Assembly: GCA_016710385.1 (NCBI GenBank)
Contig: JADJVX010000011.1
Location: 136,054-200,053, forward strand
Length of the DNA: 64,000 nt
Direction: 5' to 3'
Source: Actinomycetales bacterium
GTDB taxonomy: Bacteria > Actinomycetota > Actinomycetes > Actinomycetales > Dermatophilaceae
Every line of letters begins with the position of its first letter. The first letter of the stretch is position 1. A program made the position numbers and the translations under genes. Shown here piece after piece: positions 35,894 to 50,880 of the stretch. Under the pieces are notes generated by a model. It searched no databases and was not told the DNA's origin. It saw only the letters and a program-made list of their open reading frames with translations.

Positions 35894-36799
35894 ATGCCCG
35901 AGGGCCACACCCTGCACCGGCTGGCAGGGTCGCTCAACGGTGCGTTCGCCGGCACCCGACCCGCGGTGAGCAGTCCGCAGGGTCGTTTCGTCGAGGGGGC
36001 CGCCTGGCTGGACGGGCACACCTTCATCGAGGCCGCGGCATGGGGGAAGCATCTCTTCGCGGAGTTTTCCGGGGACCGTTACCTACACGTCCACCTCGGG
36101 CTCATCGGGTCCTTCGACGTCACGGCATACGCGCCCGAGGCGGCGCTCGACGGCAGCGACGACACGGCATACCCGATCCCACCCGCGGTCGGTGCGGTGC
36201 GTCTGCGGCTGCTCACCGCGCGTCATGTCGCCGACTTGCGCGGCGCCACGCTGTGTCGCACTGCGACCCCCGAGGAGGTCGACGCGGTCATCGCGCGGCT
36301 CGGGCCTGACCCGCTGCGACCGGACGCCGATCCGGAACGCGCGTGGCGCCGGATCAGCACGAGCAACCGCACCATCGCCGACCTGCTCATGGACCAGTCG
36401 ATCCTCGCGGGGGTCGGCAACGTCTATCGCGCGGAGGTGCTCTTTCGGCACCGGATCGACCCCTTCCGGCCGGGGCGAGAGCTGCGCCGGCGCAGCTTCG
36501 AGAGCATCTGGGCCGACCTGGTCCAGCTGCTGCCCATCGGGGTGGCCTTGGGCCAAATCATCACGATGGCCGATCAGGTCGCTGACGCGCTCGCCGGCGA
36601 CTACGACCCCGCCCTGGTGCCGACCTCACCGACGGGGGTGTCGGCCTGGCGGCCCAACCCGCACGGCACGCTGGAACGGCGTTACTACGTCTACAAGCGC
36701 GACGGTATGCCGTGTCGCCAGTGCGGCTCTCGGGTGCGGACTGCTGTGGTGGCCGGCCGCAACCTCTTCTGGTGCGGACGGTGCCAGCGCCGTCGTTGA
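35894..36799 (+). CDS. nei: Fpg/Nei-family DNA glycosylase (endonuclease VIII-like)
   Basis: MPEGHTLHR N-terminal catalytic Pro. H2TH GVGNVYRAEVLF. C-terminal zinc finger CRQCG..FWCGRCQ. Confidence 0.85.
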   Translation: MPEGHTLHRLAGSLNGAFAGTRPAVSSPQGRFVEGAAWLDGHTFIEAAAWGKHLFAEFSGDRYLHVHLGLIGSFDVTAYAPEAALDGSDDTAYPIPPAVGAVRLRLLTARHVADLRGATLCRTATPEEVDAVIARLGPDPLRPDADPERAWRRISTSNRTIADLLMDQSILAGVGNVYRAEVLFRHRIDPFRPGRELRRRSFESIWADLVQLLPIGVALGQIITMADQVADALAGDYDPALVPTSPTGVSAWRPNPHGTLERRYYVYKRDGMPCRQCGSRVRTAVVAGRNLFWCGRCQRRR

Positions 36800-37032
36800 C
36801 GCGAAGGTTATGCAGATCAGATGTCATGAATCTGGGTCTACTCCGTCATACACCTGTCAGCATGCCCATCCCCCTGGCAGGAGCTCCGATGCGCGCCGAC
36901 CGCTCACCACGATCTAAGGGTGACCGGACAGCCGACCATGCCAGGACAAAACGCCTGTACTATGACAACGAGGCTGGGGGGCCAGCCGGGCACCACATTT
37001 CCCTCCATGTGCTGCGCAACAAAGGACATCTC

Positions 37033-40000
37033 ATGACGTTGACCCCGCATTTCGCCATGGCTGCCGGGGCGCGTGCGTCCAGCGCCGAGTCGCGTCCATC
37101 CCCACAGCGACGGCTGACCTCCCTGGTCATCGCATGCGTGCTGGCGTTCATGTCCATCGGTCTGCCGGTGGTACTACCGCCATCGACAGGCTTGCTGCCC
37201 GAGGCCGCGGCGGCGCTCACGACCGCGAACTGCAACATGGGCAGCATGGGTATCAACGGGGCCACCCCGTCGACGGTGTGCTGGCTGCAGACCGGAGGAT
37301 GGACCAAGCCGGCCAAGGGCGCCACGGCGACGACGACGAACCTCACGGCGACGGTCGGGGACTTCAAGTTCACCTACGACGTTGCCGTCTTCTACCACGC
37401 CAATTCATCGACACAGGCAGGGTCGGCAGCGGGCCCGACCTGGGCGTCGGCGGCCTTCGGCAGTGCCAGCTACGGCCCAAGTGCCACCACTCCTACGAGC
37501 TACATCTACGTGACCAACACCGCCCTCGGCATCGTCGAAGCGATGACGATGCGCGTCTCCAACGTCCGGGTCATCAACACGGCGACGAACGCTGTCGTGC
37601 CCTACGGCACCTGGAAGCTGGTCTTCGCGGACGCCGAATCCACCAACAGCAACAGCGCAACCACCCCGAACGAAAGCATCAAGTTCACTGCGAGCAATGC
37701 GATCTCCAACTTCGCGGCAGGCCTGACCACGGACTACATGAAGGGCGGCGGCACGACGGGCACGACTCTCGCCTGCCCCATGCCCACCTGGGGTGGAACG
37801 ACCGTGACCTGCACCGCCACGAGCAACAACAACGGCGTCATCATCGGTTCGACCACCCCGACCAGCGCCGCCGACTGGGGCCAAATCGGTGTCAACACCC
37901 TGAACTCCAAGCAGGCCGCTGCCTTCGGTTTCTCCATCTCCAGCGTTCAGCTGAAGAAGTCTGTCGCCTCTCGGGTGCTGCCGACGGACGACTTCAAGGT
38001 CACGATTGCCGACTCCGCCGGCACGACGGTCGGCAGCGCGAGCACCGGCACGACGACCTCGGCCGATACCACCGCCTATGCCGTGGTCCCTGGCACCTAC
38101 ACCCTGAGTGAGACGGCCAACTCGGGCTCGCTCTCTGAATACACCCAGGCCTGGAGCTGCGTGGACAACGCAGGCTTCGCGGCCCCGGCGGCGCCCTCGG
38201 GCACGTCAGGCACCGTGACGGTGCAACAGGGTTCGGCCATCGTCTGCACCGTGACCAACACCCGCAAGCCAGTCGACCTGCGTTTGACGAAGTCATCGCC
38301 AGCACCGGCGCTGTCGCCGGGGGTGGCGTCCGCCTACACGCTGAATGTCACGAACAACGGCGGTTCGACCGCGACGAACGCGGTCATCGTCGACCAACTG
38401 CCGGCCAATATCGCCTACACCTCCTCGTCGGGCACGGACTGGAGCTGTTCGGCCAGTGGCACGGTCGCAGCTGGGCAGCTCGTCACGTGCACCTACACCG
38501 GGTTGATCGCGCCCTCCGCGGCGGCTCCCGCGCTCACCATCACTGTCACTCCTGCGGACGCTGCCGGAGGCACGACCGTGACCAACAAGGCGGCGGTCAC
38601 CCCGACTGGGGGAACGACTGCCCCGACGGCGGCCGTCGTGCAGGCCTGCACCGGCTCGGCCACTCCCACGACGGGGTGTGCCACGTCGACGTCGACTGTC
38701 GCCACCAAGGCTGACATCGCCGTCACCAAGTCCGACTCCACGGGTTCCGTGGACGCCGGTGGGACGACTACGTATACCGTCACCGTCACCAACAACGGCC
38801 CCAACGCGGTGAGCAATGTGGTTGTCACCGACCCCGCAGTGAGTGGGCTGACCAAGACCACCATCGCCTGCGGGGCGGGATGCACGACGGCTCCGACGAA
38901 GACCCAACTCGAGGGAGCGGGCTACACGATTTCCTCGTTGGCCTCCGGTGCGAGCTTCACATTCACCGTGGGCGTAACGGTGACCGCGACGTCGGGAACC
39001 GTCGCCAACGCGGCGACGGCGACCCCGCCGGCCGGGACGATCGACGCAGCCGGCAACAACGCGGCCACCGACACCAACACGGTGACACCTGTCTCCGACT
39101 TGGCGGTCACCAAGACCGACAACGCGACCACGGTCGACGCGGGCGCCACGACCACCTACACCGTCCAGGTGACCAACAACGGCCCCTCGGCGGTCACCGG
39201 CGCGATCCTCACCGACCCGGCCGCGACGGGTCTGACCAAGACCGCGGTTGCGTGCGGGACGGGCTGCGCCACTGCTCCCTCGATCGCTGACCTCGAGACG
39301 GGTTACGCCCTGCCGACACTCGCCTCGGGTGCTTCGTATGCCGTGCAGGTGACGGTGCACGTTGACGCCACGAGCGGCTCGGTCACGAACGTCGCCACTG
39401 TGGCCCCGCCCGCCGGGACTCTGGACAAGGTTGTCACGAACGATTCCGCGGCCGACACGGACACGGTCGCCCCGGTTGCCGACGTGTCGGTGACCAAGGA
39501 CGACGGCGTGACCCAGGTCAACAAGAACGAATCACACACCTACACGATCACGGTCCACAACGCGGGCCCGTCGACGGCCACCGGCTTCGTGCTCACCGAC
39601 CCGGCGGCAACCGGTCTGACCAAGACGGCTGTGGCCTGCGTGACGGGGTGCGCGACGGCTCCGACGATCGCGCAGCTCGAAGGTGCAGGTTACGTGATAC
39701 CGGATCTAGCATCCGGCAGCGACTTCGTCATCACAGTCACCGCGACGGTCACCCAGTCGCAGGGTTCGGTGACAAACACCGCCGTCGCCACGGCTCCGGC
39801 CGGGGTCAAGGACCCTGACACCGCCAACAACACCGGCAGTGACACCGACAATCTGGTTCCGCTGGCCGACCTGACGGTGACCAAGACCGACGGCGTCGCA
39901 GGGGCCAAGCCGGGCGACACCGTGACGTACACGGTCACGGTCAGCAATCCGTCGGGTCTGTCGACCGCCGCCAACGTCGTCATCACGGACCCGGCCGTGG

Positions 40001-43000
40001 CCGGCTTGACCGTGACGGCCGTGGCGTGCACGTCCCTCGCGGGCAATCTCTGCACGACCAACCCGACCATCAGCGCTTTGCAGGGCGCCGGTGTTGCGAT
40101 CGGCACCATGAGCTCGGGGTCCACCTACGAGTTCACCGTGACCGCAACCGTGGACGCGACGTCGGGGACGGTAACGAACACCGCGACGGCGACCACGTCG
40201 ACCCAGGACCCCAACCTGGCCAACAACAGTGCCAGTGACACCGACACGGTGGTCGGCCCGCCGGTCATCAGTGGTCCGGCAGAGGGATCGTTGATCAACG
40301 ACAACACCCCGCTGATCACGGGGACGGGCATCCCGGGTGCCACCGTGACCGTCACCGAGGGTGGGGTCACCCTGTGCACTGCCGTGGCCGCGCCCGATGG
40401 CACGTGGTCGTGCACGTCATCGCAGCTGACCGACGGCCCGCACACCATCTCCGCGACGCAGACGACTGCGGGCGTGACCTCCACCGCCGACACTCAGACT
40501 TTCACGGTGGACACGACCGCTCCGGTGGTGACGGCGACGTCGCCGGCGGTGACGAATGACACGACGCCGACGATTTCGGGGACGACGGATTTGCCGGCGG
40601 GTTCGACGATCACGGTGACTGAGGGTGGTGTGGCGGTGTGTACGGCCACGGTTGCTGCTGATGGGTCGTGGACGTGTGACCCGGTGACGGCGTTGCCGGA
40701 GGGGTCGCACACGTTTACTGCGTCGGGGACGGATGCGGCGGGGAATACGACGACCGCGACGACGACGACGGTGATTGATGTGACGGCTCCGGTGGTGACG
40801 GCGACGTCGCCGGCGGTGACGAATGACACGACGCCGACGATTTCGGGGACGACGGATTTGCCGGCGGGTTCGACGATCACGGTGACTGAGGGTGGTGTGG
40901 CGGTGTGTACGGCCACGGTTGCTGCTGATGGGTCGTGGACGTGTGACCCGGTGACGGCGTTGCCGGAGGGGTCGCACACGTTTACTGCGTCGGGGACGGA
41001 TGCGGCGGGGAATACGACGACCGCGACGACGACGACGGTGATTGATGTGACGGCTCCGGTGGTGACGGCGACGTCGCCGGCGGTGACGAATGACACGACG
41101 CCGACGATTTCGGGGACGACGGATTTGCCGGCGGGTTCGACGATCACGGTGACTGAGGGTGGTGTGGCGGTGTGTACGGCCACGGTTGCTGCTGATGGGT
41201 CGTGGACGTGTGACCCGGTGACGGCGTTGCCGGAGGGGTCGCACACGTTTACTGCGTCGGGGACGGATGCGGCGGGGAATACGACGACCGCGACGACGAC
41301 GACGGTGATTGATGTGACGGCTCCGGTGGTGACGGCGACGTCGCCGGCGGTGACGAATGACACGACGCCGACGATTTCGGGGACGACGGATTTGCCGGCG
41401 GGTTCGACGATCACGGTGACTGAGGGTGGTGTGGCGGTGTGTACGGCCACGGTTGCTGCTGATGGGTCGTGGACGTGTGACCCGGTGACGGCGTTGCCGG
41501 AGGGGTCGCACACGTTTACTGCGTCGGGGACGGATGCGGCGGGGAATACGACGACCGCGACGACGACGACGGTGATTGATGTGACGGCTCCGGTGGTGAC
41601 GGCGACGTCGCCGGCGGTGACGAATGACACGACGCCGACGATTTCGGGGACGACGGATTTGCCGGCGGGTTCGACGATCACGGTGACTGAGGGTGGTGTG
41701 GCGGTGTGTACGGCCACGGTTGCTGCTGATGGGTCGTGGACGTGTGACCCGGTGACGGCGTTGCCGGAGGGGTCGCACACGTTTACTGCGTCGGGGACGG
41801 ATGCGGCGGGGAATACGACGACCGCGACGACGACGACGGTGATTGATGTGACGGCTCCGGTGGTGACGGCGACGTCGCCGGCGGTGACGAATGACACGAC
41901 GCCGACGATTTCGGGGACGACGGATTTGCCGGCGGGTTCGACGATCACGGTGACTGAGGGTGGTGTGGCGGTGTGTACGGCCACGGTTGCTGCTGATGGG
42001 TCGTGGACGTGTGACCCGGTGACGGCGTTGCCGGAGGGGTCGCACACGTTTACTGCGTCGGGGACGGATGCGGCGGGGAATACGACGACCGCGACGACGA
42101 CGACGGTGATTGATGTGACGGCTCCGGTGGTGACGGCGACGTCGCCGGCGGTGACGAATGACACGACGCCGACGATTTCGGGGACGACGGATTTGCCGGC
42201 GGGTTCGACGATCACGGTGACTGAGGGTGGTGTGGCGGTGTGTACGGCCACGGTTGCTGCTGATGGGTCGTGGACGTGTGACCCGGTGACGGCGTTGCCG
42301 GAGGGGTCGCACACGTTTACTGCGTCGGGGACGGATGCGGCGGGGAATACGACGACCGCGACGACGACGACGGTGATTGATGTGACGGCTCCGGTGGTGA
42401 CGGCGACGTCGCCGGCGGTGACGAATGACACGACGCCGACGATTTCGGGGACGACGGATTTGCCGGCGGGTTCGACGATCACGGTGACTGAGGGTGGTGT
42501 GGCGGTGTGTACGGCCACGGTTGCTGCTGATGGGTCGTGGACGTGTGACCCGGTGACGGCGTTGCCGGAGGGGTCGCACACGTTTACTGCGTCGGGGACG
42601 GATGCGGCGGGGAATACGACGACCGCGACGACGACGACGGTGATTGATGTGACGGCTCCGGTGGTGACGGCGACGTCGCCGGCGGTGACGAATGACACGA
42701 CGCCGACGATTTCGGGGACGACGGATTTGCCGGCGGGTTCGACGATCACGGTGACTGAGGGTGGTGTGGCGGTGTGTACGGCCACGGTTGCTGCTGATGG
42801 GTCGTGGACGTGTGACCCGGTGACGGCGTTGCCGGAGGGGTCGCACACGTTTACTGCGTCGGGGACGGATGCGGCGGGGAATACGACGACCGCGACGACG
42901 ACGACGGTGATTGATGTGACGGCTCCGGTGGTGACGGCGACGTCGCCGGCGGTGACGAATGACACGACGCCGACGATTTCGGGGACGACGGATTTGCCGG

Positions 43001-45177
43001 CGGGTTCGACGATCACGGTGACTGAGGGTGGTGTGGCGGTGTGTACGGCCACGGTTGCTGCTGATGGGTCGTGGACGTGTGACCCGGTGACGGCGTTGCC
43101 GGAGGGGTCGCACACGTTTACTGCGTCGGGGACGGATGCGGCGGGGAATACGACGACCGCGACGACGACGACGGTGATTGATGTGACGGCTCCGGTGGTG
43201 ACGGCGACGTCGCCGGCGGTGACGAATGACACGACGCCGACGATTTCGGGGACGACGGATTTGCCGGCGGGTTCGACGATCACGGTGACTGAGGGTGGTG
43301 TGGCGGTGTGTACGGCCACGGTTGCTGCTGATGGGTCGTGGACGTGTGACCCGGTGACGGCGTTGCCGGAGGGGTCGCACACGTTTACTGCGTCGGGGAC
43401 GGATGCGGCGGGGAATACGACGACCGCGACGACGACGACGGTGATTGATGTGACGGCTCCGGTGGTGACGGCGACGTCGCCGGCGGTGACGAATGACACG
43501 ACGCCGACGATTTCGGGGACGACGGATTTGCCGGCGGGTTCGACGATCACGGTGACTGAGGGTGGTGTGGCGGTGTGTACGGCCACGGTTGCTGCTGATG
43601 GGTCGTGGACGTGTGACCCGGTGACGGCGTTGCCGGAGGGGTCGCACACGTTTACTGCGTCGGGGACGGATGCGGCGGGGAATACGACGACCGCGACGAC
43701 GACGACGGTGATTGATGTGACGGCTCCGGTGGTGACGGCGACGTCGCCGGCGGTGACGAATGACACGACGCCGACGATTTCGGGGACGACGGATTTGCCG
43801 GCGGGTTCGACGATCACGGTGACTGAGGGTGGTGTGGCGGTGTGTACGGCCACGGTTGCTGCTGATGGGTCGTGGACGTGTGACCCGGTGACGGCGTTGC
43901 CGGAGGGGTCGCACACGTTTACTGCGTCGGGGACGGATGCGGCGGGGAATACGACGACCGCGACGACGACGACGGTGATTGATGTGACGGCTCCGGTGGT
44001 GACGGCGACGTCGCCGGCGGTGACGAATGACACGACGCCGACGATTTCGGGGACGACGGATTTGCCGGCGGGTTCGACGATCACGGTGACTGAGGGTGGT
44101 GTGGCGGTGTGTACGGCCACGGTTGCTGCTGATGGGTCGTGGACGTGTGACCCGGTGACGGCGTTGCCGGAGGGGTCGCACACGTTTACTGCGTCGGGGA
44201 CGGATGCGGCGGGGAATACGACGACCGCGACGACGACGACGGTGATTGATGTGACGGCTCCGGTGGTGACGGCGACGTCGCCGGCGGTGACGAATGACAC
44301 GACGCCGACGATTTCGGGGACGACGGATTTGCCGGCGGGTTCGACGATCACGGTGACTGAGGGTGGTGTGGCGGTGTGTACGGCCACGGTTGCTGCTGAT
44401 GGGTCGTGGACGTGTGACCCGGTGACGGCGTTGCCGGAGGGGTCGCACACGTTTACTGCGTCGGGGACGGATGCGGCGGGGAATACGACGACCGCGACGA
44501 CGACGACGGTGATTGATGTGACGGCTCCGGTGGTGACGGCGACGTCGCCGGCGGTGACGAATGACACGACGCCGACGATTTCGGGGACGACGGATTTGCC
44601 GGCGGGTTCGACGATCACGGTGACTGAGGGTGGTGTGGCGGTGTGTACGGCCACGGTTGCTGCTGATGGGTCGTGGACGTGTGACCCGGTGACGGCGTTG
44701 CCGGAGGGGTCGCACACGTTTACTGCGTCGGGGACGGATGCGGCGGGGAATACGACGACCGCGACGACGACGACGGTGATTGATGTGACGGCTCCGGTGG
44801 TGTCGTTGGTGATTGATCCGGTGACGGCTGACAACGTGGTGAACGCGGTGGAGGCTGGTGGGCCGGTGTCGGTTACGGGCACGGTCAGTGGTGAGTTCGT
44901 TGCTGGTGACACGGTGACGTTGACGGTGAACGGGACCACGTATACGGGCGTGGTTGATGCGGCTGGGAAGTTCTCGATTCCGGTGCCGGGTGCGGAGTTG
45001 GTGGCTGACCCGGATGTGACGGTGGATGGTTCGGTGTCCACGGTTGATGCGGCGGGTAACCCTGGGTCGGCGTCGGATTCTCAGCTGTATGCGGTGGATG
45101 TGACGGCTCCGGTGGTGCGTGGGGGGGGGGGGGCGGGGGGGGGGGGCGATGGAGCCCGTGGTGTCGTTGGTGATTGA
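37033..45177 (+). CDS. Giant LPXTG surface protein, N-terminal fragment (signal peptide, unknown tip domain, Cna-B/SpaA-like domain, 5 DUF11 repeats, Ig-like repeats)
   Basis: ATG 37033 lies 7 nt after AAAGGA (track ORF 36712.. reads through from nei). TM/signal LTSLVIACVLAFMSIGLPVV. DUF11-type units (DLxVTKTD..TYTVxVTNNGPS..). Then come one Ig-like unit and 16 identical 89-aa units. The last roughly 60 nt (45118-45177) are read-through of a poly-G tract. Confidence 0.8.
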   Translation: MTLTPHFAMAAGARASSAESRPSPQRRLTSLVIACVLAFMSIGLPVVLPPSTGLLPEAAAALTTANCNMGSMGINGATPSTVCWLQTGGWTKPAKGATATTTNLTATVGDFKFTYDVAVFYHANSSTQAGSAAGPTWASAAFGSASYGPSATTPTSYIYVTNTALGIVEAMTMRVSNVRVINTATNAVVPYGTWKLVFADAESTNSNSATTPNESIKFTASNAISNFAAGLTTDYMKGGGTTGTTLACPMPTWGGTTVTCTATSNNNGVIIGSTTPTSAADWGQIGVNTLNSKQAAAFGFSISSVQLKKSVASRVLPTDDFKVTIADSAGTTVGSASTGTTTSADTTAYAVVPGTYTLSETANSGSLSEYTQAWSCVDNAGFAAPAAPSGTSGTVTVQQGSAIVCTVTNTRKPVDLRLTKSSPAPALSPGVASAYTLNVTNNGGSTATNAVIVDQLPANIAYTSSSGTDWSCSASGTVAAGQLVTCTYTGLIAPSAAAPALTITVTPADAAGGTTVTNKAAVTPTGGTTAPTAAVVQACTGSATPTTGCATSTSTVATKADIAVTKSDSTGSVDAGGTTTYTVTVTNNGPNAVSNVVVTDPAVSGLTKTTIACGAGCTTAPTKTQLEGAGYTISSLASGASFTFTVGVTVTATSGTVANAATATPPAGTIDAAGNNAATDTNTVTPVSDLAVTKTDNATTVDAGATTTYTVQVTNNGPSAVTGAILTDPAATGLTKTAVACGTGCATAPSIADLETGYALPTLASGASYAVQVTVHVDATSGSVTNVATVAPPAGTLDKVVTNDSAADTDTVAPVADVSVTKDDGVTQVNKNESHTYTITVHNAGPSTATGFVLTDPAATGLTKTAVACVTGCATAPTIAQLEGAGYVIPDLASGSDFVITVTATVTQSQGSVTNTAVATAPAGVKDPDTANNTGSDTDNLVPLADLTVTKTDGVAGAKPGDTVTYTVTVSNPSGLSTAANVVITDPAVAGLTVTAVACTSLAGNLCTTNPTISALQGAGVAIGTMSSGSTYEFTVTATVDATSGTVTNTATATTSTQDPNLANNSASDTDTVVGPPVISGPAEGSLINDNTPLITGTGIPGATVTVTEGGVTLCTAVAAPDGTWSCTSSQLTDGPHTISATQTTAGVTSTADTQTFTVDTTAPVVTATSPAVTNDTTPTISGTTDLPAGSTITVTEGGVAVCTATVAADGSWTCDPVTALPEGSHTFTASGTDAAGNTTTATTTTVIDVTAPVVTATSPAVTNDTTPTISGTTDLPAGSTITVTEGGVAVCTATVAADGSWTCDPVTALPEGSHTFTASGTDAAGNTTTATTTTVIDVTAPVVTATSPAVTNDTTPTISGTTDLPAGSTITVTEGGVAVCTATVAADGSWTCDPVTALPEGSHTFTASGTDAAGNTTTATTTTVIDVTAPVVTATSPAVTNDTTPTISGTTDLPAGSTITVTEGGVAVCTATVAADGSWTCDPVTALPEGSHTFTASGTDAAGNTTTATTTTVIDVTAPVVTATSPAVTNDTTPTISGTTDLPAGSTITVTEGGVAVCTATVAADGSWTCDPVTALPEGSHTFTASGTDAAGNTTTATTTTVIDVTAPVVTATSPAVTNDTTPTISGTTDLPAGSTITVTEGGVAVCTATVAADGSWTCDPVTALPEGSHTFTASGTDAAGNTTTATTTTVIDVTAPVVTATSPAVTNDTTPTISGTTDLPAGSTITVTEGGVAVCTATVAADGSWTCDPVTALPEGSHTFTASGTDAAGNTTTATTTTVIDVTAPVVTATSPAVTNDTTPTISGTTDLPAGSTITVTEGGVAVCTATVAADGSWTCDPVTALPEGSHTFTASGTDAAGNTTTATTTTVIDVTAPVVTATSPAVTNDTTPTISGTTDLPAGSTITVTEGGVAVCTATVAADGSWTCDPVTALPEGSHTFTASGTDAAGNTTTATTTTVIDVTAPVVTATSPAVTNDTTPTISGTTDLPAGSTITVTEGGVAVCTATVAADGSWTCDPVTALPEGSHTFTASGTDAAGNTTTATTTTVIDVTAPVVTATSPAVTNDTTPTISGTTDLPAGSTITVTEGGVAVCTATVAADGSWTCDPVTALPEGSHTFTASGTDAAGNTTTATTTTVIDVTAPVVTATSPAVTNDTTPTISGTTDLPAGSTITVTEGGVAVCTATVAADGSWTCDPVTALPEGSHTFTASGTDAAGNTTTATTTTVIDVTAPVVTATSPAVTNDTTPTISGTTDLPAGSTITVTEGGVAVCTATVAADGSWTCDPVTALPEGSHTFTASGTDAAGNTTTATTTTVIDVTAPVVTATSPAVTNDTTPTISGTTDLPAGSTITVTEGGVAVCTATVAADGSWTCDPVTALPEGSHTFTASGTDAAGNTTTATTTTVIDVTAPVVTATSPAVTNDTTPTISGTTDLPAGSTITVTEGGVAVCTATVAADGSWTCDPVTALPEGSHTFTASGTDAAGNTTTATTTTVIDVTAPVVTATSPAVTNDTTPTISGTTDLPAGSTITVTEGGVAVCTATVAADGSWTCDPVTALPEGSHTFTASGTDAAGNTTTATTTTVIDVTAPVVSLVIDPVTADNVVNAVEAGGPVSVTGTVSGEFVAGDTVTLTVNGTTYTGVVDAAGKFSIPVPGAELVADPDVTVDGSVSTVDAAGNPGSASDSQLYAVDVTAPVVRGGGGAGGGGDGARGVVGD
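40519..44790 (+). repeat. Tandem array: 16 x 267 bp (89 aa Ig-like unit), apparently 100% identical
   Basis: The period was measured between GCTCCGGTGGTG anchors (40519, 40786 ... 44791). (44791-40519)/267 = 16.0. Copy-to-copy translations are identical in three different frames of the supplied track. Confidence 0.9.
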
Positions 45178-47322
45178 TCCGGTGACGGCTGACAACGTGG
45201 TGAACGCGGTGAGGCTGGTGGGCCGGTGTCGGTTACGGGCACGGTCAGTGGTGAGTTTCGTTGCTGGTGACACGGTGACGTTGACGGTGAACGGGACCAC
45301 GTATACGGGCGTGGTTGATGCGGCTGGGAAGTTCTCGATTCCGGTGCGGGTGCGGGTTGGTGGCTGAGATGTGCGGTGGCGGGGAACCCTGGGTCGGCGT
45401 CGGATTCTCAGCTGTATGCGGTGGATGTGACGGCTCCGGTGGTGTCGTTGGTGATTGATCCGGTGACGGCTGACAACGTGGTGAACGCGGTGGAGGCTGG
45501 TGGGCCGGTGTCGGTTACGGGCACGGTCAGTGGTGAGTTCGTTGCTGGTGACACGGTGACGTTGACGGTGAACGGGAACACGTATACGGGCGTGGTTGAT
45601 GCGGCTGGGAAGTTCTCGATTCCGGTGCCGGGTGCGGAGTTGGTGGCTGACCCGGATGTGACGGTGGATGGTTCGGTGTCCACGGTTGATGCGGCGGGTA
45701 ACCCTGGGTCGGCGTCGGATTCTCAGCTGTATGCGGTGGATGTGACGGCTCCGGTGGTGTCGTTGGTGATTGATCCGGTGACGGCTGACAACGTGGTGAA
45801 CGCGGTGGAGGCTGGTGGGCCGGTGTCGGTTACGGGCACGGTCAGTGGTGAGTTTGTTGCTGGTGACACGGTGACGTTGACGGTGAACGGGAACACGTAT
45901 ACGGGCGTGGTTGATGCGGCTGGGAAGTTCTCGATTCCGGTGCCGGGTGCGGAGTTGGTGGCTGACCCGGATGTGACGGTGGATGGTTCGGTGTCCACGG
46001 TTGATGCGGCGGGTAACCCTGGGTCGGCGTCGGATTCTCAGCTGTATGCGGTGGATGTGACGGCTCCGGTGGTGTCGTTGGTGATTGATCCGGTGACGGC
46101 TGACAACGTGGTGAACGCGGTGGAGGCTGGTGGGCCGGTGTCGGTTACGGGCACGGTCAGTGGTGAGTTCGTTGCTGGTGACACGGTGACGTTGACGGTG
46201 AACGGGACCACGTATACGGGCGTGGTTGATGCGGCTGGGAAGTTCTCGATTCCGGTGCCGGGTGCGGAGTTGGTGGCTGACCCGGATGTGACGGTGGATG
46301 GTTCGGTGTCCACGGTTGATGCGGCGGGTAACCCTGGGTCGGCGTCGGATTCTCAGCCGTACACGGTGGATGTGACGGCTCCGGTGGTGTCGTTGGTGAT
46401 TGATCCGGTGACGGCTGACAACGTGGTGAACGCGGTGGAGGCTGGTGGGCCGGTGTTGGTTACGGGCACGGTCAGTGGTGAGTTTGTTGCTGGTGACACG
46501 GTGACGTTGACGGTGAACGGGACCACGTATACGGGCGTGGTTGATGCGGCTGGGAAGTTCTCGATTCCGGTGCCGGGTGCGGAGTTGGTGGCTGACCCGG
46601 ATGTGACGGTGGATGGTTCGGTGTCCACGGTTGATGCGGCGGGTAACCCTGGGTCGGCGTCGGATTCTCAGCCGTATGCGGTGGATGTGACGGCTCCGGT
46701 GGTGTCGTTGGTGATTGATCCGGTGACGGCTGACAACGTGGTGAACGCGGTGGAGGCTGGTGGGCCGGTGTCGGTTACGGGCACGGTCAGTGGTGAGTTC
46801 GTTGCTGGTGACACGGTGACGTTGACGGTGAACGGGACCACGTATACGGGCGTGGTTGATGCGGCTGGGAAGTTCTCGATTCCGGTGCCGGGTGCGGAGT
46901 TGGTGGCTGACCCGGATGTGACGGTGGATGGTTCGGTGTCCACGGTTGATGCGGCGGGTAACCCTGGGTCGGCGTCGGATTCTCAGCCGTACACGGTGGA
47001 TGTGACGGCTCCGGTGGTGTCGTTGGTGATTGATCCGGTGACGGCTGACAACGTGGTGAACGCGGTGGAGGCTGGTGGGCCGGTGTCGGTTACGGGCACG
47101 GTCAGTGGTGAGTTCGTTGCTGGTGACACGGTGACGTTGACGGTGAACGGGACCACGTATACGGGCGTGGTTGATGCGGCTGGGAAGTTCTCGATTCCGG
47201 TGCCGGGTGCGGAGTTGGTGGCTGACCCGGATGTGACGGTGGATGGTTCGGTGTCCACGGTTGATGCGGCGGGTAACCCTGGGTCGGCGTCGGATTCTCA
47301 GCCGTACACGGTGGACGCGGGC
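44791..47322 (+). repeat. Tandem array: 8 x 315 bp (105 aa Ig-like unit), near-identical, second copy degraded
   Basis: Unit starts are 44791, 45106 (degraded, 327 bp), 45433, 45748, 46063, 46378, 46693 and 47008. A few substitutions separate copies (N/T, L/P, A/T, S/L, and synonymous TTC/TTT). Confidence 0.85.
45121..45146. other. G13-C-G12 low-complexity tract at a degraded repeat junction (probable assembly/basecalling artefact)
   Basis: Read directly: 13 G, one C, 12 G. It is followed by a repeat copy carrying several 1-nt indels and a truncated 3-prime end (to about 45432). Confidence 0.7.
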
Positions 47323-48048
47323 GTCACGCCCCCGGTGATCACGGGGCCAGTGGACGGGTCGTCGACGACGAACACCACGCCGCCGATCAGCGGCACCGGT
47401 GAGCCCGGCGCCACGGTCACGGTCACCGAGAATGGGCAGCCGATCTGCACCGCCATGGTCGCGCAGGACGGCACCTGGTCCTGCACCCCGACGGCCCCCT
47501 TGGCCGGTGGGACGCACACCTTCCAGGCGACGCAGACCGATCTAGCGGGCAACGTCTCCGCGAGGTCGAATGTTGTCTCGGTGTCGATCATCACCGCCGT
47601 CATCGAAGGTCACGTGTTCCTTGACGGCAACGCGAACACCACCCTGGACGGGGGTGAGGCGGACATCGCGAAGGTCACCGTCGAGTTGGTTAAAGACGGC
47701 GTCGTCGTCGCCACCCAGGTGACGGCCAGCCCGTACCGGTTCACCGGGGTCGCTGACGGCACCTACACGATCCGCGTCGTGAACGGCCCGGCCCTGGCTG
47801 GCCTGACCGCGACGACCGAGCCTGACGCCCTCAAGACGGTGACCATGGTCAACCAGGTGTCGATCTACGAGCAGAACTTCGGCTATGTCCCCGCGGCACT
47901 GCCGAAAACGGGGTCTGACGTGGCCCCGGTGCTGTTCAGTGGGCTCGGCCTGGTGACCCTTGGGTTCGTGGCCCTGCTGGCGGTCCGCCGCCGTCACGAG
48001 GATGACGAAGAGGTCGTGGCCCGTGTCGGCGCTGACGAGATGAACTGA
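45376..48048 (+). CDS. Giant LPXTG surface protein, C-terminal fragment (Ig-like repeats, SdrD-B/Cna-B-like domain, sortase signal)
   Basis: The open frame resumes inside the degraded copy. It ends with LPKTGSDVAPVLFSGLGLVTLGFVALLAVRRRHEDD (LPXTG, TM helix, basic tail). It is very probably one gene with 37033..45177. Confidence 0.8.
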   Translation: MAGNPGSASDSQLYAVDVTAPVVSLVIDPVTADNVVNAVEAGGPVSVTGTVSGEFVAGDTVTLTVNGNTYTGVVDAAGKFSIPVPGAELVADPDVTVDGSVSTVDAAGNPGSASDSQLYAVDVTAPVVSLVIDPVTADNVVNAVEAGGPVSVTGTVSGEFVAGDTVTLTVNGNTYTGVVDAAGKFSIPVPGAELVADPDVTVDGSVSTVDAAGNPGSASDSQLYAVDVTAPVVSLVIDPVTADNVVNAVEAGGPVSVTGTVSGEFVAGDTVTLTVNGTTYTGVVDAAGKFSIPVPGAELVADPDVTVDGSVSTVDAAGNPGSASDSQPYTVDVTAPVVSLVIDPVTADNVVNAVEAGGPVLVTGTVSGEFVAGDTVTLTVNGTTYTGVVDAAGKFSIPVPGAELVADPDVTVDGSVSTVDAAGNPGSASDSQPYAVDVTAPVVSLVIDPVTADNVVNAVEAGGPVSVTGTVSGEFVAGDTVTLTVNGTTYTGVVDAAGKFSIPVPGAELVADPDVTVDGSVSTVDAAGNPGSASDSQPYTVDVTAPVVSLVIDPVTADNVVNAVEAGGPVSVTGTVSGEFVAGDTVTLTVNGTTYTGVVDAAGKFSIPVPGAELVADPDVTVDGSVSTVDAAGNPGSASDSQPYTVDAGVTPPVITGPVDGSSTTNTTPPISGTGEPGATVTVTENGQPICTAMVAQDGTWSCTPTAPLAGGTHTFQATQTDLAGNVSARSNVVSVSIITAVIEGHVFLDGNANTTLDGGEADIAKVTVELVKDGVVVATQVTASPYRFTGVADGTYTIRVVNGPALAGLTATTEPDALKTVTMVNQVSIYEQNFGYVPAALPKTGSDVAPVLFSGLGLVTLGFVALLAVRRRHEDDEEVVARVGADEMN

Positions 48049-48063
48049 CGGCGCAAGGCACGT

Positions 48064-48103
48064 CGAGGGCGTGGAACCACCCGGTTCCGCGCCCTCGGCG
48101 TTT
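48064..48103 (+). terminator. Rho-independent-type terminator after the surface protein gene
   Basis: CGAGGGCGTGGAACC (48064-48078), loop ACCC, then GGTTCCGCGCCCTCG (48083-48097). There is one mismatch, and GCGTTTCC follows. Confidence 0.6.
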
Positions 48104-48128
48104 CCGTGCCCGGCAGACAAGATCCGAT

Positions 48129-48160
48129 ACAGGTATGCCGTGCGGGCACGGCATACCTGT
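48129..48160. repeat. Perfect palindrome built from an inverted pair of the abundant motif, in the clpC1 upstream region
   Basis: ACAGGTATGCCGTGC GG GCACGGCATACCTGT, with 15-bp perfect arms. Confidence 0.8.
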
Positions 48161-48306
48161 GTGCTCAGGGCGAACACGCGGGGAGGGTGCTGCCTGGGGG
48201 AACACCCACTGCGGGGGTCGCGTTGGGCATAAGACTGGTATGCCGCGCGGCCCGGATACGATCGTGGCGCTGATGCAGGCGAGGCCTGGAAGGTAGGAGT
48301 GGAGAA

Positions 48307-50880
48307 ATGTTCGAACGGTTTACCGACCGCGCTCGGCGCGTCGTCGTGCTCGCCCAAGAAGAGGCGCGCATGCTCAACCACAACTACATCGGCACCGAGC
48401 ACATCTTGCTTGGCCTCATCCACGAGGGCGAGGGCCTGGCCGCCAAGGCGTTGGAAAACCTCGGGATCAAGCTGGCCGACGTTCGCCAGCAGGTGCAGGA
48501 GATCATCGGCCAAGGCCAGCAGGCGCCCACGGGGCACATTCCCTTCACGCCGCGAGCCAAGAAGGTGCTCGAGTATTCGCTGCGGGAGGGCCTACAGCTC
48601 GGGCACACCTACATCGGCACCGAGCACATCTTGCTCGGTCTGATCCGCGAGGGTGAGGGGGTCGCAGCCCAGGTGCTCGTCAAGCTCGGGGCCGACCTCA
48701 ACAAGGTGCGTCAGCAGGTCATCCAGCTGTTGGCGGGCTACCAGTCCGGGCAGGGGGAGAAGGCCGGTGCCGGCGTGGGAGCCGCCCAGGGCGGGCCCTC
48801 CGAGGGCACGCCGGCGGGTTCGCTGGTGCTGGACCAGTTCGGTCGCAACCTGACCCAGGCTGCTCGCGAGGGGAAGCTCGACCCGGTCATCGGGCGCGAG
48901 AAGGAGATCGAGCGGGTCATGCAGGTGCTGTCTCGCCGCACCAAGAACAACCCGGTCCTCATCGGTGAGCCCGGCGTGGGGAAGACCGCGGTCGTCGAGG
49001 GCCTCGCCCAGGACATCGTCCGCGGCACAGTGCCCGAGACGCTCAAGGACAAGCAGCTCTACACCCTCGATCTGGGCGCACTGGTCGCCGGGTCGCGCTA
49101 TCGCGGTGATTTCGAAGAGCGACTCAAGAAGGTGCTCAAGGAGATCCGCACCCGCGGCGACATCATCATCTTCATCGACGAGATCCATACCCTGGTCGGA
49201 GCCGGTGCCGCCGAGGGCGCCATCGACGCGGCATCGATCCTCAAGCCGATGCTGGCGCGCGGCGAGTTGCAGACCATCGGGGCCACGACCCTCGACGAAT
49301 ACCGCAAGCACATCGAGAAGGACTCGGCGCTGGAGCGGCGCTTCCAGCCCATCCAGGTCGCCGAGCCGACCCTCGCGCACACCATCGAGATCCTCAAGGG
49401 CCTGCGCGACCGTTACGAAGCCCACCACCGGGTGTCCATCACCGACGGCGCCCTGGTTGCCGCCGCGACAATGGCCGACCGCTATGTCAACGACCGTTTT
49501 CTGCCCGACAAGGCGATCGACCTCATCGACGAGGCGGGCGCGCGACTGCGGATCCGCCGAATGACGGCTCCGCCGGACCTGCGCGAATACGACGAGAAGA
49601 TCGCCGAAGTGCGTCGCCAAAAGGAAGCGGCCATCGACGGCCAGGATTTCGAGAAGGCCGCGCGCCTGCGCGACGACGAGAAGCAACTGTCCAACGCCCG
49701 CGCCGAGCGCGAGGCGCAGTGGAAAGCCGGCGACATGGATGTCGTCGCGGAGGTCGACGAGGAGCTCATCGCGGAGGTGCTGGCCGCGTCGACCGGCATA
49801 CCGGTCTTCAAGCTCACCGAGGAGGAGTCCGCCCGCCTGCTCAACATGGAGGCCGAGCTGCACAAGCGGATCGTCGGGATGAACGACGCCATCCACGCGC
49901 TGTCTCAGGCCATCCGGCGCACCCGCGCCGGGCTGAAGGACCCCCGTCGCCCGGGCGGGTCGTTCATTTTCGCTGGGCCGACCGGTGTCGGCAAGACCGA
50001 GCTGGCCAAGACTCTCGCGGAATTCCTCTTCGGCGATGAGGATGCGCTCATCCAGCTCGACATGAGCGAATACTCCGAAAAGCACACGGTTTCAAGGCTT
50101 TTCGGTTCACCCCCCGGTTACGTGGGCTACGAAGAGGGCGGCCAGCTCACCGAAAAGGTGCGCCGCCGGCCGTTCTCGGTGGTGCTCTTCGATGAGGTCG
50201 AAAAGGCTCACCCGGACATCTTCAACTCGTTGCTGCAGGTGTTGGAGGACGGTCGACTCACCGACTCGCAGGGCCGGATGGTCGACTTCAAGAACACCGT
50301 CATCATCATGACGACCAACCTCGGCACCCGTGACATCACCAAGGGCAGCCTAGGCTTCTCGGCCGGACCGGACACCCGTAGCGAATACGAGCGGATGAAG
50401 AACAAGGTCCAGGACGAGCTGAAGAACCACTTCCGTCCGGAGTTCCTCAACCGCGTGGACGACATCATCGTCTTCCCCCAGCTCACCCAGGAAGAGATCG
50501 TCGCGATCGTCGACCTGGAGATCGCCAAGCTGGACAAGCGGCTCAAGGACAAGGACATGGGTCTCGAACTCACCCTCACGGCCAAGAACCTGCTGGCCAA
50601 GAAGGGCTACGACCCCGTGCTCGGTGCTCGCCCGCTGCGGCGCACCATCCAGCGCGAGATCGAGGACATGCTGTCCGAGAAGATCCTCTACGGCGAGTTG
50701 AAGGCGGGCGAGTTCGTCCTCGTCGACGCGACCGGCGAGGAACGCGACTCGACGTTCACGTTCCAAGGATCGCTGCGGCGCGACACTATTCCCGATATTC
50801 CCGATATTCCGGATATGCCGCCAATCGACTCGGTGGGTGGACCGCGGGATGCCGCCGGTGGAACGGCGAGTGCGTCATAG
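48307..50880 (+). CDS. clpC1: ATP-dependent Clp protease ATP-binding subunit ClpC1
   Basis: [21 protein letters not shown], duplicated Clp-N repeats, two AAA modules (GEPGVGKTA; [12 protein letters not shown]), and a UVR-like motif between them. Confidence 0.97.

Follow-up and report, generated by a model that had tools for sequence, protein, structure and literature searches.

The window analysed here is a 64-kb stretch of DNA (C11:136054-200053) from a genome, G000, of 3.83 Mb in 28 contigs with 69% G+C. In a comparison of nei-centred loci from 71 genomes, the organism falls in the Dermatophilaceae, next to metagenome-assembled genomes (MAGs) of Candidatus (Ca.) Phosphoribacter from wastewater plants. 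Between the genes nei and clpC1, the window carries one giant gene of ~3,670 codons, which encodes a predicted LPXTG-anchored adhesin and in which the commonest 8-mer of the genome, GTATGCCG (hereafter the word), is nearly absent. Starting from the N terminus, the adhesin consists of a signal peptide, an orphan domain of ~400 aa, a SpaA-like/DUF7619/DUF7507 region, five DUF11 domains and 16 Big_13 units, which are followed by eight further Ig-like units, Big_13, SdrD_B, the LPKTG signal and a membrane anchor (Table 1). In particular, its C terminus has the makeup of an LPXTG surface protein, with a match to PF00746 and the LPKTG motif followed by a hydrophobic stretch and an RRRH tail.

Table 1. 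Features of the nei-clpC1 region, in window positions (ORF, open reading frame; TRF, Tandem Repeats Finder)
Feature	Position	Strand	Evidence and remarks
nei (endonuclease VIII-like), left flank	35894..36799	+	tblastn to relatives, 91-39% identity; blastn to L001 up to 36799
Apparent lineage-specific insertion (leader, one giant adhesin gene, terminator)	36800..48130	+	missing from the orthologous L001 site
Leader, nei stop to adhesin start	36800..37032	+	no homolog in relatives
Adhesin ORF part 1	37033..45177	+	signal peptide to Big_13 repeats (ORF list, Pfam)
One-mismatch near-copy CTATGCCG(TG), i.e. CTATGCCGTG	38076..38083	+	AYAV context; 89% of AYAV sites genome-wide carry the word
One-mismatch near-copy GTATACCG	38772..38779	+	T-Y-T-V context
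Sole exact word copy in the adhesin gene	39336..39343	+	TCG TAT GCC GTG, SYAV, in a DUF11 repeat
267-bp x16 tandem array, Big_13 Ig-like domains	40515-44802	+	units identical except for a single base (TRF, unit comparison); zero word-compatible peptide contexts
315-bp x8 tandem array, another Ig-like repeat	44782-47315	+	one YAV or YTV site per unit
Corrupted repeat copy	45120..45375	+	G13-C-G12 tract and 1-nt indels; splits the adhesin ORF
Adhesin ORF part 2	45376..48048	+	315-bp repeats to sortase signal and membrane anchor (PF00746 Gram_pos_anchor, PF17210, PF19077)
Hairpin 3' of the adhesin stop, probable terminator	48064..48097	+	RNA fold -48.9 kcal/mol, z = -7.65; part of the insertion
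Perfect palindrome, two inverted word copies, right border	48129..48160	.	folding z = -5.44
clpC1, right flank	48307..50880	+	leader conserved from about 48160

L001, the closest relative (84.5% nucleotide identity), is homologous to the window as far as the nei stop and again from 48124 on. Only a ~45-bp spacer separates its nei stop (10906) from GGTATGCCGTG, the extended consensus of the word, which aligns with window positions 48131-48141, and the three word copies in nei (36123, 36165 and 36705) are conserved at L001 positions 10230, 10272 and 10812. Across the genus, the content of the nei-clpC1 spacer varies. L001 has an empty spacer, L002 has an S-adenosylmethionine (SAM)-methyltransferase-like gene there, to which L034 adds a universal stress protein, and L004 has a methyltransferase, a universal stress protein and more ORFs, one of them for a 754-aa repeat protein. 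L003 also holds other genes at this spot.

For the 1,160-aa non-repeat part of the adhesin, 19 further genomes of the genus yielded no ortholog and its own genome yielded no paralog, only DUF11-level matches of 30-39% identity. Among 5.8 billion proteins, the best matches reach at most 50% identity; they are confined to DUF11 repeats and stem from several phyla. For the N-terminal 406 aa, a search of 1.84 billion representative proteins gave no relative above 40% identity, save a fragment of itself. This fragment, a 1.5-kb contig of an independent metagenome assembly, is 99.6% identical and covers 36981-38455, and the adhesin gene is therefore not unique to the present assembly. No close homolog that could point to a donor appeared in either protein set or in metagenome scans that targeted the junction or the N-terminal domain. 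Judged from these alignments, 36800-48130 is an insertion that is specific to this lineage and brought in one giant LPXTG adhesin gene, and we infer that the event was a gain rather than multiple losses. The initial annotation had read the absence of the word as a mark of young or foreign DNA. The gene is indeed young at this locus, given the empty L001 site and the missing ortholog; an origin from outside the genus cannot be shown, and the termini of the gene look native.

Two other readings of the locus bear on this conclusion. We consider it quite unlikely that the gene is ancestral and was lost in the relatives, with the word excluded by selection (hairpins or recombination signals) or erased by fast diversifying evolution. 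The variation of the spacer across the genus and the native-like codon usage of the termini fit such a history, and the near-misses (38076, 38772 and those of the 315-bp units) may represent words that have decayed. However, each of the other lineages examined would need to have lost the gene independently, no ortholog was found, even among the 1.84 billion representative proteins, and other giant surface-protein genes tolerate the full expected word load. It is very improbable that an adhesin segment of another organism was mis-joined into a contig of this long-read MAG. Although the MAG has an estimated contamination of 4.4%, one repeat copy is visibly corrupted (poly-G tract and indels) and three whole contigs lack the word, both junctions are clean within one intergenic spacer with syntenic genes on either side. 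Additionally, the non-repeat parts agree with this genome in codon usage and in G+C content at third codon positions (GC3), and the independent assembly has its 99.6%-identical piece, though this does not span the junction.

The word (reverse complement CGGCATAC) occurs 4,931 times in the genome, or once per 776 bp; in the window, each strand has 43 copies. Its abundance exceeds the prediction of Markov models of order 1 to 3 by a factor of 20-63, and the one-mismatch variants are each rarer than the exact word by a factor of at least 7. The two strands carry about the same number of copies in each 50-kb bin of the six largest contigs. Close pairs of copies are inverted in 248 cases vs direct in 53, and ~10% of copies lie in close inverted pairs. 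The 11-mer GGTATGCCGTG is abundant in 18 of 18 genomes of the same genus, and only 0-2 copies were counted in each of 12 other families of the order. Word density is graded across the Dermatophilaceae nei loci and is zero in loci from outside the family, such as those of Nocardioides, Rothia and Aeromicrobium.

Intermediate densities of 0.5-1.1 copies per kb around nei are seen in L038 (Nostocoides japonicum T1-X7), L022 and L036 (Pedococcus bigeumensis), L047 and L040. Pedococcus ginsenosidimutans and a Phycicoccus sp. have nearly no copies, like genomes outside the Dermatophilaceae. Cultured strains exist among the intermediate-density members of the family and are usable for uptake experiments.

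Three simpler accounts of the word were rejected. The Illumina adapter contains the 8-mer, but the genomic flanks differ (G before, TG after), and the copies lie in frame within genes and are conserved in relatives. An oriented word of the Chi type, or of the type of the FtsK-orienting polar sequences (KOPS), does not agree with the lack of strand skew in the 50-kb bins. A mostly intergenic element resembling repetitive extragenic palindromes (REP), which long genes would naturally be without, is contradicted by densities of 1.16 copies per kb in coding vs 1.72 in uncalled or intergenic sequence, and by the 0.7-1.6 copies per kb in long resident genes.

In the 2,932 genes called by a home-made gene caller, which cover 80% of the genome, the commonest coding form of the word is xxG-TAT-GCC-Gxx, encoding X-Y-A-[VAGDE] (1,471 copies), and the second is xCG-GCA-TAC, encoding [TAPS]-A-Y (1,070 copies). 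Genome-wide, 30-86% of the peptide-compatible sites carry the word, depending on the frame, and 65% do so overall; the occupancy is 79% in the X-Y-A-[VAGDE] context and 86% for VCR and RHT. The tripeptides that the word encodes are 2.3-3.8-fold enriched over reversed-order controls (TAY 702 vs YAT 130, YAV 735 vs VAY 188, GMP 369 vs PMG 81, VCR 138 vs RCV 40 and RHT 279 vs THR 86). The same test gave the same result for the uptake signal sequence (USS) and the DNA uptake sequence (DUS) (Findlay & Redfield 2009, PMC2817400). Because site occupancy is high and the tripeptides are enriched, the word appears to be driven at the DNA level, and the load of a gene is set by its amino-acid "opportunities". 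We infer that it has spread through such a DNA-level drive, e.g. biased uptake plus recombination.

Across 36705-48133, exact copies on either strand are found at 36705, 39336 and 48133 only, and the closest reverse-strand copies lie at 36165 and 48149. The scarcity reported in the initial annotation is thus borne out, with 39336 as the only inner copy; the near miss that it placed around 38080 is CTATGCCGTG at 38076, and the one-mismatch form that it saw in some 315-bp units is GTATGCGG, present in five of them (45087, 45414, 45729, 46044 and 46674). The gap of 8,797 bp between 39336 and 48133 is the 7th largest in the genome, and 0.55% of 11.3-kb windows genome-wide hold at most one copy. 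The P value of the deficit depends on the null model chosen. Specifically, a naive Poisson model gives P = 6e-6. When the arrays are reduced to one unit each (about 5 kb), P rises to 0.01-0.03, and 3.4% of 5.1-kb windows hold at most one copy. An amino-acid-aware model gives P of ~0.05 for the N-terminal part alone and 0.006 with one 315-bp unit site added. Among the called genes with an expected count (E) of at least 2.5, 10 of 418 hold at most one copy.

The sites available to the word are unevenly spread over the gene. In the 3.5-kb N-terminal non-repeat part, compatible sites occur at a normal density, 1.4 per kb; the five sites, two of which overlap, correspond to 3.6 expected copies, or about 2.7 if counted as independent, and one is observed. 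Each 315-bp unit has one compatible site (LYAV/PYAV, with TAT GCG instead of TAT GCC), with about 0.9 copies expected and none observed, and both the 267-bp unit and the 0.7-kb C-terminal part have zero sites, zero expected copies and zero observed. In the 4.5 kb of non-repeat sequence, 1 of 4-5 independent compatible sites is filled, vs 65% genome-wide. The earlier figure of roughly 15 expected copies was therefore inflated, because 6.8 kb of the word-poor stretch are arrays whose units have zero or one compatible site. Taken together, the gap is real and beyond chance, yet far less extreme than 15 expected vs 1: after repeat collapse and with amino-acid context, the deficit is about 3-6 expected copies vs 1 seen. 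The informative signal is in the non-repeat part of the adhesin, not in the repeat block.

The repeat region had been described as a single block at 40519-47322. It is indeed free of exact word copies, and it consists of two arrays (Table 1). GC3 averages 0.873 over the genome (standard deviation 0.038). The N-terminal and C-terminal parts of the gene have values of 0.86 and 0.88, and the 267-bp and 315-bp arrays have values of 0.776 and 0.71-0.72. The synonymous codon score of both repeat units is below that of all 2,932 called genes. As for the comparison with compositional indicators that the initial annotation proposed, the repeat units are thus extreme outliers and the two terminal parts are native-like. 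The block is atypical and, to judge from its identical units, has been amplified or homogenised very recently.

Several further observations concern the arrays. Over window positions 40000-47000, the coding strand has a G-over-C skew of 0.27-0.40 and prefers GCG and GCT over GCC, unlike other genes of the genome. The 315-bp units at 45407-47022 are otherwise 98-100% identical, and their variable spot is exactly the near-word site, which reads CTG TAT GCG (LYA), CCG TAT GCG (PYA) or CCG TAC ACG (PYT). To judge from its homopolymer tract and indels, the corrupted copy at 45120-45375 is probably a long-read consensus error rather than a pseudogene or a phase switch.

Two other giant genes of the genome provide controls. 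C23:74152-89383, a 15.2-kb giant surface-protein gene with a 93%-identical ortholog in one relative, holds 11 copies vs 12.4 expected. Ten of these 11 lie in its non-repeat half, a stretch of 7.5 kb with 14 compatible sites, 10 of them occupied, and its 7.5-kb array of 375-bp units has zero copies. C23:99174-112620 (13.4 kb), with orthologs in six genomes of the genus, holds 13 copies vs 13.6 expected; its 390-bp unit bears a word copy that has been amplified together with the unit. Outside the repeats, word density is 0.2 per kb in the adhesin gene vs 1.1-1.6 per kb in the resident giants. Because the array of a resident adhesin is equally empty, an empty tandem array is uninformative on origin. 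Word counts in tandem arrays are all-or-none, and the arrays should be collapsed to one unit before an origin is inferred. The claim that the repeat block especially marks the gene as young or foreign is not supported, since its 267-bp unit has no contexts for the word and the resident array is just as empty.

These controls also bear on whether composition and repeats alone produce the gap, that is, whether the gene is an old resident, rich in Thr, Val, Ala and Gly, with few contexts for the word (without Tyr-Ala, Met-Pro and Gly-Ile), and whether the arrays multiply an empty unit. The lack of compatible sites in the 267-bp unit and the C-terminal part, the empty 7.5-kb array of the resident adhesin and the 3.4% of windows that are equally poor after repeat collapse all favour this reading. 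However, 1 of 5 N-terminal sites is used vs 10 of 14 in the non-repeat half of the resident adhesin, and the reading is largely refuted by the absence of the gene from the orthologous L001 site and of any ortholog from the genus. We therefore regard it as unlikely.

The turnover of the word was measured over 18.3 kb of flanks aligned with L001. Of 29 word copies of the window in these flanks, 26 are conserved in L001, whereas a neutral 8-mer would be expected to persist in 26% of cases (0.845^8), and 3 copies are specific to G000 and 4 to L001. The slow accumulation that the initial annotation had presupposed is supported by these counts. Conservation is ~70% with L002 and L003 (76-78% identity) and 35-55% in more distant relatives. 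The gain since the split from L001 amounts to ~0.16-0.2 copies per kb. Because turnover is this slow, newly arrived DNA should lack the word; for an insert with ~4.8 kb of non-redundant sequence, this rate predicts a gain of about one copy, in agreement with the one observed.

We consider it probable that the locus records a single-gene insertion after the split from the closest sequenced relative, that the insert is word poor through slow turnover and that the gap was lengthened by the tandem arrays. In this scenario, GTATGCCG would be a family-wide, strand-symmetric, uptake-sequence-like tag of the Dermatophilaceae that is held in place in resident DNA. The LPXTG-anchored DUF11/Big_13 adhesin gene, together with its leader and terminator, would have entered the nei-clpC1 spacer after the L001 split, and its ~4.8 kb of non-redundant sequence would have gained about one word copy. 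The length of the gap would then have been multiplied as two units were amplified in tandem or homogenised, one of 267 bp without a word context and one of 315 bp with a single context that was left unoccupied.

Several points weigh against the insertion scenario. The motif statistics alone are modest after correction for repeats and amino acids (P 0.006-0.05). The N-terminal and C-terminal parts have native-like codon usage (26th and 53rd percentile) and bear no compositional foreign mark. The borders show no terminal direct or inverted repeats, integrase, transposase or tRNA, and the segment holds a single ORF only, so that nothing at the borders accounts for a mechanism of insertion. L001 is a different species (about 85% nucleotide identity) with a possibly incomplete genome, and the gene may, in principle, have been lost in L001 rather than gained here. 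Finally, each of the three TAT codons in the N-terminal part belongs to an exact or one-off word copy, and these could be decayed words from a donor that was also word-bearing. The one-off copies number 3 in ~4.8 kb of non-redundant sequence vs ~1 expected at the genome-wide rate, too few to separate decay from nascent gain.

At both borders of the insertion, a consensus promoter scan, which included the leader 36800..37032, found nothing, and a simple terminator scan made no call; the hairpin at 48064..48097 lacks a T-run and was seen only on folding. In the alignment with L001, copy 48133 of the right-border palindrome is ancestral and copy 48149 is specific to this genome. Two of the three G000-specific copies (48149 and 48238) lie within 120 bp of the right border of the insertion, and 48149 makes the 48133 copy a perfect palindrome with 15-bp arms. 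Beyond it, the clpC1 leader (48160-48306) contains blocks that are conserved across species, also in L001-L003, namely TGTCCGC..GGGCGAACAC, GGGGAACA, GCGTTGG and GAAGGTAGGAGTG, and this conservation suggests a regulatory 5' region at clpC1.

Genome-wide, gaps of at least 6.9 kb comprise contigs C9 and C14 in their entirety and the phage contig C15, two islands (one with a TIR domain beside dnaB, the other with an rve/phage integrase), an orphan-gene block, and elements of the serine-recombinase, IS3/IS110 and ISL3 types. The remainder are surface-protein genes with SpaA repeats, the array of the resident giant and the rRNA operon. No ordinary core protein-coding region anywhere in the genome has a gap of this size. 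The concern that undoubtedly ancestral core genes might contain many motif-free stretches of similar length, raised in the initial annotation, is thereby answered.

Some of these deserts deserve description. The largest (15.3 kb, GC 0.635), with a DUF1883-TIR protein, is bordered by a DnaB helicase gene with an apparent intein (G000:C22:303418-304885). C9 (11.2 kb) and C14 (12.1 kb, GC 0.618) have zero word copies, and C15 (20.2 kb), which carries phage portal and capsid genes, has two; the occupancy of compatible sites is 0 in C9 and 0.13 in C15, vs 0.65 overall. These three contigs represent mobile or phage DNA, or else they were mis-binned (estimated contamination 4.4%).

The word desert serves as an internal test of the word, which is kept in place in resident DNA and is absent from DNA shown to be new by independent synteny and from phage and transposon regions. 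This residency test is the new element here, and it adds weight to the proposal of a DNA-level drive in a Gram-positive group for which none has been described. Additionally, compatible-site occupancy allows accessory DNA and mis-binned contigs to be flagged quickly in Ca. Phosphoribacter-like genomes, and the word could serve as a binning check for the Dermatophilaceae. Ca. Phosphoribacter-like bacteria are key phosphorus removers in wastewater plants. To our knowledge, there is no uptake bias, receptor, natural transformation or uptake experiment on record for a Dermatophilaceae host of the word. ComEC, ComEA and DprA are present in the genome; they are also present in 10-11 of 14 control genomes and are thus not diagnostic. 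In every feature testable in silico, the word appears uptake-sequence-like. It is possible, though doubtful, that GTATGCCG is a true self-recognition or DNA-uptake tag, that its occupancy acts as a residency clock and that the adhesin gene was imported by transformation and homologous recombination via the word-bearing nei and clpC1 flanks.

Among known oligonucleotides, Chi, KOPS/FtsK-orienting words and SpoIIIE recognition sequences (SRS) are also over-represented 8-mers and would also be missing from foreign DNA; these are strand-skewed with the direction of replication, whereas GTATGCCG is equal on both strands. The adhesin resembles the giant LPXTG adhesins of Gram-positive bacteria with DUF11/TIGR01451, Big_13 and SdrD-B stalks in its order of signal peptide, tip domain, Ig-like stalk, LPXTG and anchor, and its near-identical tandem units are typical of the fast expanding, contracting and homogenising arrays of such proteins. 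Distinct from known giant adhesins, it has an N-terminal 400-aa domain without a relative above 40% identity, and the codon usage and G-over-C skew of its repeat units are unlike those of any other gene in the genome.

The closest parallel is with the DUS and USS of Neisseria and Haemophilus. Genes without homologs lack uptake sequences (PMC2817400), and DUS density is reduced in neisserial genomic islands (PMC7371117). Like these, GTATGCCG is a hyper-abundant, strand-symmetric and taxon-specific word that occurs ~1 per kb and is lacking in mobile elements, prophage and DNA that is specific to one lineage; as in DUS and USS genomes, the encoded tripeptides are enriched, here 2.3-3.8-fold, and inverted pairs form hairpins in spacers. 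Unlike DUS and USS, it belongs to a Gram-positive actinobacterial family, the Dermatophilaceae, near Ca. Phosphoribacter, and it is an 8-mer that fills 65% of its compatible coding contexts and is apparently denser. Unlike the islands poor in DUS or USS, the "island" described here is a single gene without mobility functions.

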